Source: a virus
Virus genome (UHGV): UHGV-0285588
DNA: 46,380 nt
Direction: 5' to 3' (one strand)
The translations under genes were made by a program, and so were the position numbers. This document shows, piece after piece, positions 5,659-30,957 of this stretch. The notes beneath the pieces are model-generated. The model saw nothing but the letters and a program-made list of their open reading frames with translations, was not told the DNA's origin and ran no database searches. How positions within the stretch are numbered: position 1 is the first letter of the stretch; every line of letters starts with the position of its first letter.

Positions 5659-5787
5659 ATGAACGAGACTGATGCTGATTTGAGATTTTACATCGACCTG
5701 TACGTTGATTGCGGGTTTACCTATGATGAGGCCCGCGTAAAGGCGATTTTGTTACTGGCTAAGATTGGCGTAGTGGTTGAGGATTAA
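5659..5787 (+). CDS. hypothetical small protein (42 aa), first gene of a plus-strand moron cassette
   Basis: ATG about 25 nt downstream of a motif promoter. MNETDADLRFYIDLYVDCGFTYDEARVKAILLLAKIGVVVED. Coordinates are accurate to 1-2 nt. Confidence 0.35.
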   Translation: MNETDADLRFYIDLYVDCGFTYDEARVKAILLLAKIGVVVED

Positions 5788-5789
5788 AA

Positions 5790-5942
5790 ATGCCAGTCAA
5801 TAAAGACGACGAAGATGTGATATCTGCATATGCAGGCCAACGCATCGATATAAACTACGCGATAGCAATTCACCTGCGACGCGCTGAGTTTATCGCCAAT
5901 CTGATTTTGTGTGGTATAAAGAATAAAACCAGGAGAGCTTGA
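5790..5942 (+). CDS. hypothetical small protein B1 (50 aa), paralogue of 6278..6430
   Basis: MPVNKDDEDVISAYAGQRIDINYAIAIHLRRAEFIANLILCGIKNKTRRA, about 80 percent identical to the ORF at 6278. Its stop overlaps the TTG/ATG start of the next ORF. Confidence 0.45.
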   Translation: MPVNKDDEDVISAYAGQRIDINYAIAIHLRRAEFIANLILCGIKNKTRRA

Positions 5943-6259
5943 TGGATATTGAATATGTAGGTGAAGATGATGGCGATCATTCTGATGGTGAACTTACAGG
6001 CTTGAGGGAGTCAGCGGACGATGAGAACCGCTATGCATGCGAGCAATACCTTGACGCCTTGGTAACAATTGAACTAGCAACTAAGTTTGCCATGATGGAG
6101 TCTCGCCAGGTTAACAAATCAATACGCGCGTGCTGGTCAGCAATCAGGCCGCGAATTGATAATAAATTAAACCGCCAGATATTCGATGGCATGGCTAATC
6201 AGTTTATGCCGCATGGCGCGCTGTGTATGTTGCGCCGTCAGCTTGATGAGTGTGTATGA
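5939..6259 (+). CDS. hypothetical acidic protein (106 aa)
   Basis: Track ORF, translationally coupled to B1. Asp/Glu-rich N-terminus. Confidence 0.45.
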   Translation: MMDIEYVGEDDGDHSDGELTGLRESADDENRYACEQYLDALVTIELATKFAMMESRQVNKSIRACWSAIRPRIDNKLNRQIFDGMANQFMPHGALCMLRRQLDECV

Positions 6260-6277
6260 TGTTGCGGGAGAAAACCA

Positions 6278-6430
6278 ATGGTGGTTGACCAAACAGATGC
6301 TGATGTCATATCCGCCTATGCCGGACAGTGCATTGACATTAATTACGCGATTGCCATTCACTTAAAGCGATCTGAGTTTATGGCTAATCTGATTTTGTGG
6401 GCGATTAAAAATAAGACGAGGAAGGCGTGA
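6278..6430 (+). CDS. hypothetical small protein B2 (50 aa), paralogue of 5790..5942
   Basis: MVVDQTDADVISAYAGQCIDINYAIAIHLKRSEFMANLILWAIKNKTRKA. GTGA overlap with the next ORF. Confidence 0.45.
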   Translation: MVVDQTDADVISAYAGQCIDINYAIAIHLKRSEFMANLILWAIKNKTRKA

Positions 6431-6627
6431 TAATGAGAGCCATTCATAAAATAAAAAAAGAAAGCCATGTGAACGAAATGATTGAATATTACGGCTGGAT
6501 TTATGTCCATAAATTTAAATCTTCGCATGGTAACATGCGGAGGATAGCAAGAAGAATGGAGCGAGATGGCAAATTAAAGATGATATCTCAAGATAAGTTG
6601 TTTTTTAGATATGTCAGAACAGAATAA
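6427..6627 (+). CDS. hypothetical basic small protein (66 aa)
   Basis: Track ORF coupled to B2. Lys/Arg-rich. Followed by a strong bidirectional terminator. Confidence 0.4.
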   Translation: MIMRAIHKIKKESHVNEMIEYYGWIYVHKFKSSHGNMRRIARRMERDGKLKMISQDKLFFRYVRTE

Positions 6628-6655
6628 ACCCCCTTTCGGGGGTTTTTTTATTGCG
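6628..6655. terminator. bidirectional intrinsic terminator (aaaccccctttcgggggttttttt)
   Basis: GC hairpin flanked by A and T runs, between the convergent 6427..6627 (+) and major tail (-) genes. Confidence 0.7.
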
Positions 6656-7403
6656 TAACGGTAACAACACACTTGGTGGAGTCAACGTAATCAGGACTGG
6701 TTGCCGAATCCATCACGCGGCAGAAGTACGTACCAGCATCACCTGCGGCAGCATCGTCCTTGGTGAACGTGTCGGTAGTAGCACTGCTGATCGGCGAAGT
6801 GCCTTTATACCATTGGTAGGTATAAGGCTTGACACCGCCAGCCGCAACTACCGGACCGAGCGTCAGAGTGTCGTTAGTGGCAACGCTTTTGTCTTCACTG
6901 ATATCAGTAGTCAGCGTCAAATCTTCGATGCTGGACACGTCAACAGTAGAGCCATCATAAGGCTTGAATTCAACTGAGCCGGTGATAATGTCGTTGGTGC
7001 CGCCATCGTAGCTCAGAGCGGTAATGTTGCAGTAGGCAACAACAACGGTATTACCGGTGGTCTGACGCACCCACAGCGAAGGCTGACGACGAGCTTTTAC
7101 TTCGGTGACAAAGTATTTGATGAGGTTATGTACGCCATACTCATCAGCCTTATCAGCCTTGCGAACCTCAAAATCACCAGAAATGGTGAGGTCTGCGGTA
7201 GTGACCAGCGTCGCAACAAAGCCATCGCCATCATCAGCCTCTGAGGTAGTGGTGCTTGGGCTGAAGTCGACGCCTTTTGAGGTCATTGGAGCAAAAAACT
7301 TCCAATCTTCCTCTGCTGGTACAGCATCCCAGCAGCCATCAGCCAGCTCGATGAGCGACTGGCGACCTGTGATGATGCCGTTATCATTTGCACAAATAGC
7401 CAT
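6648..7403 (-). CDS. major tail protein (gpV-like) with C-terminal Ig-like domain
   Basis: 251 aa. The C-terminal roughly 80 aa have a Big_2-like pattern (TLTLGPVVAAGGVKPYTYQWYKG...GTYFCRV). Position matches V in a lambda-like order. Confidence 0.7.
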   Translation of the reverse strand: MAICANDNGIITGRQSLIELADGCWDAVPAEEDWKFFAPMTSKGVDFSPSTTTSEADDGDGFVATLVTTADLTISGDFEVRKADKADEYGVHNLIKYFVTEVKARRQPSLWVRQTTGNTVVVAYCNITALSYDGGTNDIITGSVEFKPYDGSTVDVSSIEDLTLTTDISEDKSVATNDTLTLGPVVAAGGVKPYTYQWYKGTSPISSATTDTFTKDDAAAGDAGTYFCRVMDSATSPDYVDSTKCVVTVTQ

Positions 7404-7448: not shown

Positions 7449-7477
7449 TTGACAGCTTTTGATTGGTGGCGTAGATT
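7449..7477 (+). promoter_or_regulatory. sigma70-type promoter TTGACA-17 nt-TAGATT, preceded by TGGCG (motif family)
   Basis: TTGACA at 7449-7454 and TAGATT at 7472-7477. Faces a coding-free, structured region. A same-strand terminator lies at 8281. Confidence 0.55.
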
Positions 7478-7650
7478 TAATGGCAGATAGTTTTCGGTGC
7501 GACTTTGCGGGTTTTTAGAAACTGACCACAAAGATAAATGCAAACGAAGAAATGTATCTGGCAGTAGCCTAACGGCTAAACACCAGCAAGGTCTTCCGAC
7601 TCCTTGTCAATGAATTCGGCGCACTGGCCCGGTGTGATTAATGATGGGCA

Positions 7651-7759
7651 CACAACAGGTAAGAGCATTGTCAGGTAGCTTCAGGGGACACGCCCGCACT
7701 GGTGACGACCTATGCGCAAAAGTACGTGTGGTAAGTCCTGGAGTGCTCTTTCCGTTGTG
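7651..7759 (+). repeat. structured element 1
   Basis: 5' arm cacaacaggtaagagcattg and 3' arm gtgctctttccgttgtg. The arms can pair over about 17 bp and flank about 72 nt. Confidence 0.6.
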
Positions 7760-7865
7760 ACCAGCAAGACCATACAACACGCGCAATAATCTTAACCGTA
7801 GCGTGTGTTGCTGGGCCGGGAATGGGTTAACATTCAAGAGTGAGATGGTGCGTCACTCCACAACA

Positions 7866-7947
7866 CACAACAGGTAAGAGCATTGGGCATTTGAGGGCTG
7901 TTCCACCCTATCTGATGTCGAGCCAAGCCAGTGCTCTTTCCGTTGTG
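7866..7947 (+). repeat. structured element 2
   Basis: Same arms as element 1, flanking about 45 nt of different internal sequence. Confidence 0.6.
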
Positions 7948-8092
7948 GTAATGCGGCTATGCGCACGTGGCAAGGTAGAAATATGCTCCTTTTGTGGGTA
8001 TGCCTGCTGGATTTACCGACCAGCAACCTGGAGGCACCAGGGCCACAACAATAATTCGAATCCTGTCGCGGGAACCATATTCGGTGAGCGCA

Positions 8093-8278
8093 ATGATACA
8101 AATCCAAAAAATCCACTATGATTACTGGCGCATAGCTGACCAAAATAATAGCAGGGTTGCTGGTATATCAAAGGTCGGGAAGTGGTATGTTGTCGCAAAT
8201 GCTAATGGGCGATATGATGCCCGATTCGAATATCTTGGCGATGCCATTGATTATTTATTATGTAGTAATGACTACTAA
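8093..8278 (+). CDS. hypothetical small protein (61 aa) co-transcribed with the structured RNA
   Basis: ATG 8093 preceded by GGTGAG. MIQIQKIHYDYWRIADQNNSRVAGISKVGKWYVVANANGRYDARFEYLGDAIDYLLCSNDY. Its stop is 2 nt before the terminator. Confidence 0.4.
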   Translation: MIQIQKIHYDYWRIADQNNSRVAGISKVGKWYVVANANGRYDARFEYLGDAIDYLLCSNDY

Positions 8279-8280
8279 AA

Positions 8281-8305
8281 GCCGCTCATCAGCGGCCTTT
8301 TTTTA
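8281..8305 (+). terminator. intrinsic terminator gccgctcatcagcggc + T7
   Basis: Perfect 6-bp GC stem followed by a T-run on the plus strand. Abuts the stop of the minus gene 8303..8686. Confidence 0.7.
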
Positions 8306-8686
8306 TTCACCAAAAACAACCCTCAGCAACAATTCATAAACAGGCCTTTTCTCTGTCGTAAGCGTAGGGCGGCCAAGCGGCGCCTGCAACTGAATCATTC
8401 CAATACAACTATCAACTGGATGCTCTTTGATGTATGCGATGACATCAAGCGCTTTTGCCTTTGTTTCTTCGATGTTGTACTGGCCCTGCTGGCCGACAAC
8501 ATAGAGCGAAAAATAATAATCATTGCTGAGGTCTTTGCTTACGTTCGTGCCGCCATTGGATTGCAGCACCATAAACCGATCTGTGCCAACTTCGGTATCG
8601 TTCCAGAACTCAAGCTGAGAAGTCCACCCATCATAAAGACCGGCATCGCTAAGGTACTGGTCAACAAGCTCAAGCATATCTCTCAT
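8303..8686 (-). CDS. tail terminator-like protein (gpU position)
   Basis: 127 aa. Assignment rests on its position immediately upstream of the major tail gene. Confidence 0.4.
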   Translation of the reverse strand: MRDMLELVDQYLSDAGLYDGWTSQLEFWNDTEVGTDRFMVLQSNGGTNVSKDLSNDYYFSLYVVGQQGQYNIEETKAKALDVIAYIKEHPVDSCIGMIQLQAPLGRPTLTTEKRPVYELLLRVVFGE

Positions 8687-30873: not shown

Positions 30874-30957
30874 CAGGGCATCATTGAAGTGAATGCAGCA
30901 GGCGGTGATGAGTCGCTTTTCGGGTGCCCCCTAGCCGCATTAATTATTATAAATCAG

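Follow-up and report, generated by a model that had tools for sequence, protein, structure and literature searches.

A modular structured-RNA island in a phage tail operon, with a core resembling the mRNA-like half of tmRNA

A plus-strand transcription unit among the tail genes

The window analysed here is a 46,380-nt stretch of the virus genome UHGV-0285588, i.e., nearly the whole genome. Positions 7449–8305 of its plus strand form a separate transcription unit of structured RNA within a minus-strand tail operon, flanked by the genes for the major tail protein and the tail terminator (Table 1). An earlier note on this DNA had described a self-contained unit with its own promoter and terminator, and we agree: all of the features that it listed, these two signals included, are present where it had placed them, and none of the minus-strand mechanical ORFs between 7404 and 8302 matches a PHROG family, which bears out its view that this strand holds no credible protein. 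Transcription would start a few nucleotides 5' of TAGTTTTCG (7488), and equally placed consensus-like promoters can be read directly in the sequences of Felixounavirus wV8, Kolesnikvirus phiEa21-4, Kuttervirus and the phage-plasmid pG749_2. The island runs in the order core, cassette 1, module X, cassette 2, cloverleaf module, tRNA-Met stub, 61-aa gene and terminator. Judged by sequence comparison, each of these segments is an independently conserved module; this independence, the tag frame (7540–7572) and the tRNA-Met remnant (8055–8077) went unmentioned in the earlier note.

Table 1. Features of the RNA island and its flanking genes, in window coordinates.
Feature	Position	Strand	Description	Support
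Major tail protein gene	6648–7403	-	Flanks island
Promoter	7449–7477	+	Sigma-70 type, TTGACA-17-TAGATT	10/12 consensus positions
tmRNA-like core	7488–7651	+	5' GUUUUCG motif, A/U-rich leader, tag frame, helix-5-like hairpin, two H-type pseudoknots
Tag frame	7540–7572	+	GCA AAC GAA GAA ATG TAT CTG GCA GTA GCC TAA = ANEEMYLAVA*
Helix-5-like hairpin	7558–7586	+	Outer stem CTGG/CCAG, inner stem TAGCC/GGCTA, stop codon in loop
Pseudoknot a	7587–7619	+	Hairpin CAAGG-TCTTCCGACT-CCTTG; loop CCGA (7596–7599) pairs with TCGG (7616–7619)
Pseudoknot b	7620–7649	+	CGCACT (7620–7625) with GGTGTG (7631–7636); GCCC (7627–7630) with GGGC (7646–7649)
Cassette 1	7649–7759	+	Arms 7649–7670 and 7742–7759, 71-nt structured interior	Stem covariation
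Module X	7760–7863	+	Three hairpins, including a 10-bp hairpin at about 7775–7810
Cassette 2	7864–7947	+	Arms 7864–7885 and 7930–7947, unrelated 44-nt interior	Stem covariation
Terminal cloverleaf-like module	7942–8049	+	Closing helix GTTGTGG/CCACAAC, three hairpins, the last CCTGG-AGGCA-CCAGG	Four-way junction fold
tRNA-Met(CAT) 3' remnant	8055–8077	+	23 nt: T-loop, 3' acceptor strand, ACCA	Alignment A1 with BUCT541
61-aa protein gene	8093–8278	+	GGTGA Shine-Dalgarno-like sequence 5'	phrog_35112 (E = 2.5e-20)
Intrinsic terminator	8281–8305	+	GCCGCTCATCAGCGGC then T run; stem 8281–8296	Also conserved in BUCT541
Tail terminator gene	8303–8686	-	Flanks island	PF23842

What the earlier note called two tandem elements are the two cassettes. 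Their 5' arms are identical copies of CACACAACAGGTAAGAGCATTG and their 3' arms identical copies of AGTGCTCTTTCCGTTGTG (100% in both cases), and each arm pair folds to a long stem that is interrupted by a bulged A and a U.U mismatch, so the identical arms and the stems stand; the word "tandem" does not, since the interiors are unrelated, TRF found no tandem repeats and the arms alone repeat. Folding z-scores are -1.96 for the first element and -3.90 for the second. A lack of covariation in homologues was among the results that the earlier note had named as telling against its reading, but the arms do covary: in an alignment of 72 distinct arm pairs (alignment A3), 12 of 18 pairs in the stem (~19 bp) covary and 95.8% of cells are paired. 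About 96 distinct cassettes were found, and they move about relative to the core, e.g., locus L013 has the interior of cassette 1, altered by compensatory changes, 5' of its core, and in locus L043 cassette 2 comes directly 3' of the core. Both elements are copies of a widespread cassette with a covarying stem, a sequence-conserved distorted base and unrelated interiors, and the cassettes form a second RNA family that is not on record and covaries strongly.

The 61-aa ORF was said to be well initiated, and it does have a Shine-Dalgarno-like sequence, although translation may really begin at a GTG at 8084. It occurs in 28 phage records, with tblastn matches down to 44% identity and eight protein clusters, and its AlphaFold2 model has five strands and one helix (pLDDT 89) with no fold, Pfam, PDB or PADLOC match (ToxN-type toxins being included in Pfam and PADLOC). 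We conclude that it is a real conserved gene which is only locally linked to the RNA island. The coupling of ORF and RNA that the earlier note proposed does not hold generally, because some part of the island is matched by about 770 phage records, against 28 for the ORF.

The same evidence bears on the likeness that the note drew to type III toxin-antitoxin loci (a repeat RNA plus a small toxin) and to retron msr/msd RNAs. The layout does recall them, with a small ORF and a terminator after the promoter and repeated RNA, but the resemblance is superficial: there are no tandem direct repeats, the ORF matches no Pfam or PADLOC family, and many phages have these RNAs but not the ORF. Nor is there an adjacent reverse transcriptase, the 61-aa ORF being the only adjacent plus-strand gene and the flanks being tail genes. 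We regard this explanation as effectively refuted.

A core built like the mRNA-like half of tmRNA

The first segment of the island contains a short reading frame that opens, as in tmRNA, at a "resume" codon, GCA, preceded by U at position -5 and A at position -4. The frame lacks an in-frame start codon and is preceded, eight codons upstream, by an in-frame TAG. It is exactly 10 codons plus a stop in 122 of 127 loci, among which there are 30 distinct nucleotide versions; all of TAA, TAG and TGA are in use as the stop, and the consensus tag is AN[DE]xxx[L]x[AV]A. Most of these loci were gathered by a pattern that fixes TAAATGCAAAYGA and GGTCTTCC, so the invariance of those bases is built into the collection. 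When species-representative genomes were scanned, 28 of 31 pattern matches were chance occurrences inside longer ORFs, without the 10-codon tag.

Substitutions between near-identical pairs of loci indicate what kind of selection acts on the frame. In the tag frame, 34 changes are synonymous and 16 non-synonymous (68% synonymous), while each of the other frames gives 15 synonymous and 35 non-synonymous (30%), so the synonymous excess is confined to one of the three frames compared. This pattern points to selection on the encoded peptide, and we therefore take the frame to be decoded.

The structures around and after the tag are supported by covariation. In alignment A2, 91.5% of the cells in core pairs are paired, compared with 29–47% in slid controls; 16 of 25 pairs have changed on both sides, and none of 500 shuffles reached the observed covariation values. 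Three core helices were also recovered independently by RNAalifold; the helices that it proposes upstream of the tag, where PK1 would lie, are invariant, and no equivalent of PK1 was established there. The outer pair of the helix-5-like hairpin is A-U in 17 sequences of this alignment and G-C in 14. The two helices of pseudoknot a have 99.4% and 100% of their cells paired, and its loop co-varies with the downstream partner (CCGA/UCGG, CCAA/UUGG, CCAG/CUGG). In pseudoknot b the loop GUGUGAUUAAUGAU is conserved, and the 6-bp first stem, one that RNAalifold recovers, uses CG, GC and UA pairs.

Several of these features are those of tmRNA. Two tmRNA hallmarks are present in the core, namely a helix 5 that holds the stop codon and a start-less, GCA-opened tag with a hydrophobic and Ala end (the tag being short, of the AND... 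type and closed by small hydrophobic residues), and pseudoknots lie downstream of the tag. Rfam tmRNA models match the core segment in four divergent loci (21.9, 33.1, 29.2 and 22.0 bits; E 0.001–0.05), although the best scores, 21.9 bits in the window and 33.1 bits in relatives, fall below the Rfam gathering threshold of 47 bits. The nearest consensus to the upstream and tag sequence (AUAAAUGCAAACGA) is that of the permuted (two-piece) tmRNA model. There are also differences: the core has only two pseudoknots 3' of the tag where tmRNA has PK2–4, it lacks the acceptor stem with G3:U70, the T-arm and the CCA end, it continues into unrelated stem-bounded cassettes, and it is carried by phages whose hosts already own a standard tmRNA. 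In its anatomy, then, the core corresponds to the mRNA-like half of tmRNA, and the tRNA-like half is lacking.

The core is undescribed in ARAGORN, Rfam and RefSeq annotation. The earlier note had recognised no known family in the elements; this is wrong for the tmRNA-like core and for the last RNA module, which resembles STnc100 (see below). A phage RNA with only the tag half of tmRNA was not found in the literature that we searched, whose coverage was incomplete, so an earlier description is possible.

Distribution, downstream modules and tRNA genes

The core is not peculiar to this phage. The 10-codon frame is preserved in about 120 related loci, where most changes to it are synonymous, and these loci span Felixounavirus, Kuttervirus, N4-like phages, siphoviruses, prophages and phage-plasmids, with core identities of 72–92% across unrelated phage families. 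Its surroundings vary: in Felixounavirus and Kolesnikvirus it lies inside tRNA clusters, on the same strand as the tRNAs, in SSU5-like phage-plasmids it is followed by tRNAs, and in lambdoid prophages it sits upstream of the holin gene. It is also found in Kuttervirus, Gamaleyavirus and siphoviruses, and 780 of 5,426 complete E. coli genomes match it; in 137 of these the match covers 80% of the core or more. The Klebsiella phage BUCT541 is instructive, as its core is nearly identical to that of the window while all of 7761–8053 is replaced (alignment A1). Near-identity amid replaced neighbours points to purifying selection on the core.

Module X, within which we found the further hairpin that the earlier note had placed at 7775–7812, is separately mobile: 27 phage records, N4-like and Ackermannviridae genomes among them, have it on its own. 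The terminal module is present in 33 phage records. Its closing helix overlaps cassette 2 at 7942–7947, and its last hairpin shows a compensatory change from CCUGG/CCAGG to UCUGG/CCAGA. When judged against the Rfam consensus as aligned in locus L076, its layout is that of STnc100 (RF02076), i.e., a UGGUG...CACCA-type closing helix and an AAU linker, then hairpins at the 5' and penultimate positions, and finally a hairpin, looped by AGGCA, that abuts the 3' closing strand. However, it is an internal part of a longer operon, not a terminator-ended sRNA, and the STnc100 model has no match in 7925–8085 at E ≤ 10. We therefore do not assign it to the family and call it STnc100-like in layout only.

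Seed regions and targets are described for the prophage sRNAs STnc100 and PasD (bioRxiv 10.64898/2026.05.13.724894), which raises the question of whether the whole island is a set of ordinary base-pairing or protein-binding sRNAs of this kind that regulate host or phage mRNAs, the likeness of the core to tmRNA being convergent or vestigial. The layout of the terminal module fits this idea, as do a true STnc100 match in the equivalent Kuttervirus island and the location of lambdoid prophage islands near the holin gene, where Pas sRNAs also lie. It leaves unexplained the coding signature of the tag frame, the resume-codon context and the placement in tRNA clusters on the tRNA strand, and the window's own terminal module lacks the model match, so we consider it unlikely as an account of the whole. 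Limited to the downstream modules, an sRNA role is compatible with our main explanation.

Two further comparisons concern stable RNAs near tRNA genes. GOLLD and ROOL are large, ornate, phage-associated RNAs that are often next to tRNA genes, and the island is likewise long (~600 nt), highly structured, borne by phages and prophages and often near tRNA genes. It differs from them in being a mosaic of independently mobile modules, one of translated type, and in lacking a match to their models; other Rfam families (Y RNA/YrlA, Esr41, AgvB/AsxR and others) likewise gave no match in the window and 17 related loci. Phage tRNA clusters encode stable non-tRNA RNAs as well, e.g., the species 1 and 2 RNAs of T4. 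Like them, the island is a same-strand array of small stable RNAs, probably made as one precursor, and its relatives contain or abut tRNA genes; unlike them, it has no intact tRNA, and what delimits its modules is a conserved stem of their own where tRNA clusters have processing signals.

A trace of such genes does remain in the window. Neither ARAGORN nor Rfam finds a complete tRNA cloverleaf in it, but the stub 3' of the STnc100-like module corresponds to a tRNA-Met(CAT) that is intact in BUCT541 (by annotation and ARAGORN) and shows that this module was once followed by tRNA genes; BUCT541-type relatives keep three of them at the island site. The island could on this basis be the decaying wreck of a tRNA/tmRNA gene cluster, functionless in the phage today, and the variable content 3' of 7760 among close relatives would fit. 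Such decay sits badly with core covariation and coding-type selection across hundreds of genomes, with an intact promoter and terminator, and with the conservation elsewhere of each remaining module; we think it very unlikely.

The missing tRNA-like half and a possible role in trans-translation

If the core is used as tmRNA is, it needs an alanyl tRNA-like domain, and we searched for one. None was found in the window by ARAGORN or at the Rfam gathering threshold, our own scan of both window strands for a T-arm followed by CCA gave none either, the only T-loop with ACCA being that of the tRNA-Met remnant, and ARAGORN called no tmRNA in 128 extended related loci. Cassettes bearing a T-arm adjoin the core in some loci, but they all lack a free CCA end and are not called by ARAGORN. 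Nearby non-canonical tRNA-like RNAs with a CCA end occur in only 27 of 127 loci.

Several candidates for the missing domain were considered and set aside. The T-loop and ACCA at 8055–8077 are identical to the tRNA-Met 3' end of BUCT541 and lack their partner strands for a T-stem and an acceptor stem. A tmRNA fold, whether standard, permuted or "nested", that uses the cassette arms as helix 2 or acceptor stem was unsupported, and the occurrence of the same cassette 5' of the core in some phages and 3' in others argues against it. A long-range acceptor pairing in Kuttervirus (GCUGUUU...AAACGGC) was rejected because its 5' strand sits in a local covarying hairpin. Pairing between the core and E. 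coli tmRNA was also dropped, its duplex energy being no better than that of shuffled sequences.

Other phages carry tmRNA genes in whole or in part. Complete tmRNAs are found in mycobacteriophages (the Bxz1 group) and Bacillus phage G, while mycobacteriophage DS6A has only the tRNA-like domain (PMC4131195, PMC11915505). An exhaustive 2014 search of RefSeq viruses reported ssrA in eight mycobacteriophages only, with Bacillus phage G and DS6A named separately and no enterobacterial phage among the finds. The DS6A fragment is reported to inhibit tmRNA (PMC4131195, PMC11915505), so phage-borne partial tmRNAs can be inhibitors. The core described here is its mirror image, having the tag half where DS6A has the tRNA-like half.

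The core might accordingly be suspected of being a decoy, i.e., an untranslated mimic of the tag and pseudoknot part of tmRNA that titrates host factors such as ribosomal protein S1, RNase R or ribosome-bound SmpB and thereby damps or redirects host trans-translation. The absence of a tRNA-like domain, which makes direct use as a tmRNA problematic, is what one would expect of such a sponge, and so is a strongly conserved structure. A decoy, however, needs no maintained frame, yet the synonymous excess falls in the tag frame only, and the frame stays at 10 codons and keeps its stop while that stop switches among three codons. These properties make a decoy improbable in our view.

On balance we favour, with reservations, reading region 7449–8305 as a plus-strand stable-RNA operon of interchangeable modules, a moron set head-on against the tail genes, whose core is a trans-translation template. 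The core would act on stalled ribosomes as a template specified by the phage, so that a phage C-terminal tag ending in LAVA or LMAA would be added instead of the host's ALAA. Since the window encodes no tRNA-like domain, both that domain and SmpB would have to be supplied in trans, either by host tmRNA-SmpB or by the odd CCA-ending tRNA-like RNAs that lie beside the core in other phages. The long stems probably serve processing and stability, so that the modules are freed from a single precursor; candidate enzymes are RNase III, for cleavage of the stems, and RNase E, for cleavage at the conserved AG/UUUU 5' motif.

A bolder version of this proposal, which we put forward only tentatively and hold to be rather doubtful, is that enterobacterial phages carry a split trans-translation system that has gone unrecognised, with a free-standing tag template, made up of the mRNA-like domain and pseudoknots, and a separately supplied tRNA-like domain meeting on stalled ribosomes. 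The supplier might be host tmRNA-SmpB or the CCA-ending RNAs of Felixounavirus (which have G3:U70 and A73) or Kuttervirus. We know of no precedent for a tRNA-like domain given in trans to an untethered template. If the system is real, a phage could put a degron of its own (...LAVA or ...LMAA) on stalled proteins in place of the host tag, ribosome rescue could continue when host tmRNA is depleted or attacked, and the cassettes could serve phages in general as a "display scaffold" on which functional RNAs are exchanged.

To our knowledge, tmRNA has been thought functional only as a covalent or base-paired unit of tRNA-like and mRNA-like parts. An mRNA-like half that is under coding selection without its partner challenges this view, and it would imply either a new route by which templates reach stalled ribosomes or a new viral strategy against ribosome rescue. 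The core is spread over hundreds of virulent and temperate enterobacterial phages, and many phages used in therapy and biocontrol have it (those like Felix O1, Kuttervirus, and siphoviruses of Klebsiella and Salmonella).

In EPEC prophages, Pas sRNAs adjoin islands of this type near the holin gene. Being Hfq sRNAs that end in a terminator, they could be equated with none of the modules. In ARAGORN, Rfam and PGAP pipelines, the core is either left unannotated or covered by spurious "hypothetical protein" calls.

The tmRNA-like core

The feature at 7449-8305 is best read as a new and widespread tmRNA variant that lacks the tRNA-like domain and forms part of a modular RNA island, a plus-strand stable-RNA operon lying between the minus-strand major tail protein and tail terminator genes. 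All features that an earlier note on this DNA had listed (promoter, arms, stems, hairpin, ORF and terminator) are present in the sequence. Mechanical ORFs in the gap match no phage protein family. That note had recognised a structured-RNA unit but missed its main point, the tmRNA-like tag template. Its two "tandem elements" stand as identical pairs of arms; there are no true tandem repeats in the region, only the arms recurring. Neither a type III toxin-antitoxin reading nor a retron reading is supported.

Features of the plus-strand RNA island
Feature	Coordinates	Strand	Remark
Promoter, TTGACA-17-TAGATT	7449-7477	+	
tmRNA-like core	7488-7651	+	
Tag reading frame	7540-7572		start-less, within core
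Repeated arm, 22 nt	7649-7670 and 7864-7885		two copies identical
Repeated arm, 18 nt	7742-7759 and 7930-7947		two copies identical
Module X	7760-7866		
Further hairpin	~7775-7810	+	from folding
Terminal module	7940-8056		
61-aa ORF	8093-8278	+	
Intrinsic terminator stem	8281-8296	+	T run directly after

The core was aligned across 33 representatives, each less than 95% identical to any other, and four elements were tested: a helix-5-like hairpin whose loop contains the stop codon, another hairpin whose loop reads UCUUCCGAYU, pairing of that loop with a downstream UCGG to give a pseudoknot, and a further pseudoknot made of CGCACU/GGUGUG and GCCC/GGGC. In the proposed structure 91.5% of cells pair, compared with 29-47% when partners are slid, both sides have changed in 16 of the 25 pairs, and none of 500 shuffles attained the observed values. 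Three of the helices were recovered independently by RNAalifold. [quoted passage not shown] Weak tmRNA-model matches in a permissive Rfam scan of the window lie at 7465-7572, and they fall on the equivalent segment in phages IME11 and wV8 and in one Kuttervirus locus.

The tag frame reads GCA AAC GAA GAA ATG TAT CTG GCA GTA GCC TAA (ANEEMYLAVA*), a peptide similar to the E. coli ssrA tag ANDENYALAA. An in-frame start codon is absent and an in-frame TAG lies upstream, while AUAAAU directly 5' of the frame puts U at position -5 and A at position -4. In 122 of 127 loci the frame runs for exactly 10 codons before a stop, with 30 distinct nucleotide versions and all of TAA, TAG and TGA in use as stops; other tags include ANDDVVLMAA, ANDNVFLAVA, ANDEQFLAVA and ANDDLMLMAA. 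Between near-identical sequence pairs, 34 changes in the tag frame were synonymous vs 16 that were not, and this excess is reversed in each other frame (15 vs 35), so the frame is under selection as a coding sequence, a sign that the tag is read by ribosomes.

The missing tRNA-like half

ARAGORN called neither a tRNA nor a tmRNA in the window, and a tmRNA in none of the related loci; Rfam at its gathering threshold returned no tmRNA in the window, and our own scan found no T-arm followed by CCA on either strand. Because these scans were negative and the window is a near-complete genome (the closest relative, ZX4, is 45,424 bp), the phage carries the tag-encoding half of a tmRNA without the tRNA-like half. 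The one T-loop plus ACCA, at 8055-8077, was rejected as the tRNA-like half: it is the last 23 nt of a tRNA-Met whose gene is intact in Klebsiella phage BUCT541. The sole curated RNA family in the window is int-alpA RNA, elsewhere at 30878-30941 (-), which scored 37.4 bits, just over its gathering score of 35.8.

Only 27 of the 127 loci have anything comparable to an odd CCA-ending tRNA-like RNA beside the core. That of the Felixounaviruses is 82 nt long, with C1-G72, G3:U70, A73, CCA, one hairpin and no D-arm; in Escherichia phage wV8 (L003) it lies at ~1665-1746, about 30-60 nt 3' of the core, and is not called by ARAGORN. It is kept in those Felixounavirus-type loci whose sequence covers its position, and the L030 copy has a compensatory hairpin change; as a partner that accepts alanine for the core it is a candidate. 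Kuttervirus loci L004, L060, L076 and L121 have a conserved 126-nt tRNA-like RNA downstream of the core (an 8-bp helix replacing the anticodon arm, then a hairpin as variable arm, a T-arm and UCCA), and some Kuttervirus genomes have extra modules between the two.

The identities of the parts and the selection acting on them are shown, while the function is inferred. tmRNA and SmpB are described as using the U at -5, A at -4 context to set the frame (PMC2481249). This context, together with the evidence that ribosomes read the tag, favours the core as a phage-specified trans-translation template; an alanyl tRNA-like domain and SmpB would be supplied from elsewhere, and proteins would be tagged with LAVA or LMAA at the end, not ALAA. 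RNase III could plausibly cut the long cassette stems, and RNase E the invariant AG/UUUU on the 5' edge of the core; such cuts would free the modules from a single precursor. The template reading is weakest in that we know of no precedent for an untethered tag template; in addition, no complementarity of the core to host tmRNA was found. A non-translated decoy and simple decay remain rivals.

Cassettes and downstream modules

The arms ACAGGTAAGAGCATTG and CAGTGCTCTTTCCGTTGTG were found again in most related loci, where they bound about 96 different cassettes with unrelated interiors, on either side of the core. In the window, both arm pairs form long stems interrupted by a bulged A and a U.U mismatch. 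Across 72 distinct arm pairs, 95.8% of stem cells pair vs 38-61% in slid controls, and both sides have changed in 12 of 18 pairs; gathering the arms by consensus similarity inflates the percentage paired, not the double-sided changes. The inverted repeats do covary across relatives, a point on which the earlier note had staked its reading beforehand. The stem base is conserved in sequence (GGUAA/UUUCC, bulged A, third-pair mismatch), the distal stem covaries freely, and G.U pairs are confined to the plus strand, so the stem is a plus-strand RNA feature.

Many modules that are otherwise unrelated share a short closing helix, CACAAC/GUUGUG, including cassettes, terminal modules and the IME11 tRNA-like RNA hairpin (e.g., L128 1195-1330 and 1345-1375; window 7651-7656/7942-7947 and 8043-8049). 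Since GTTGTG at 7942-7947 is able to pair with either cassette 2 or the terminal module, alternative folds are suggested there.

The window matches BUCT541 as far as 7760 and resumes matching at 8055, with the content swapped between. Module X occurs on its own in 27 phage records and the terminal module in 33, each in unrelated families. The fold of the terminal module is a four-way junction whose last hairpin carries a compensatory change, and its layout is matched by the STnc100 Rfam consensus as seen in a Kuttervirus island; the window itself has no STnc100 match. Ordinary sRNA functions remain a rival for these downstream modules. A true STnc100 match occurs in L076, in the same island as the 126-nt tRNA-like RNA.

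That the 61-aa ORF is a true gene follows from its match to phrog_35112, from homologues as distant as 44% identity and from a confident protein model (five strands and a helix); the protein has no recognisable fold or family. The ORF is not generally coupled to the RNA: it occurs in only 28 phage records, which makes it a neighbour of the RNA, not a partner. A second plus-strand small-ORF cluster in the minus-strand late operon, at 5659-6627 (+) and next to the major tail gene, which it precedes, contains a pair of paralogous 50-aa ORFs (5790-5942 and 6278-6430); counterparts of these small ORFs in ZX4 and BUCT541 are annotated as hypothetical proteins.

Distribution and annotation

BLAST shows positions 7486-7670 to be conserved, with 72-92% identity, among phages that differ widely. 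The core lies within the tRNA cluster, on the tRNA strand, in Felixounavirus wV8 and Kolesnikvirus phiEa21-4, and it also occurs in Kuttervirus, N4-like Gamaleyavirus IME11 and many Klebsiella, Salmonella and Escherichia siphoviruses; an IMG/VR pattern scan gave 120 further loci. Some part of the island is matched by about 770 of 50,697 phage records. Matches to the core occur in 780 of 5,426 complete E. coli genomes, mostly partial and on ~90-115 kb plasmids, and cover at least 80% of its length in 137; among the E. coli matches listed, none has an RNA annotation over the core. Plasmid pG749_2 carries a promoter, a divergent core (ANEEVYLAVA), stem-closed modules, then tRNA-Asn, tRNA-Tyr and tRNA-Thr. 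Among species-representative genomes only three were true members, all Enterobacterales.

An exhaustive 2014 RefSeq virus survey found ssrA in eight mycobacteriophages only, naming Bacillus phage G and DS6A (tRNA-like domain only) from outside that dataset (PMC4131195). The paper on the 2025 tmRNA database names standard, permuted, intron and coding-sequence-less forms, and no tag-template-only form (PMC11915505). Our other literature searches, partial in coverage, found no description of a tag-only phage tmRNA.

Deposited "hypothetical protein" CDSs overlie the core or cassettes (wV8 gp050, L003 1486-1626 (-); BUCT541, L001 2810-2944) and are probably spurious calls over RNA genes. In lambdoid prophages (L007, L016 and similar), the island follows a terminator and precedes the lambda-type holin gene S; in this late-leader region Stx phages carry tRNA genes, and the sRNAs Pas and STnc100 have been reported (bioRxiv 10.64898/2026.05.13.724894).
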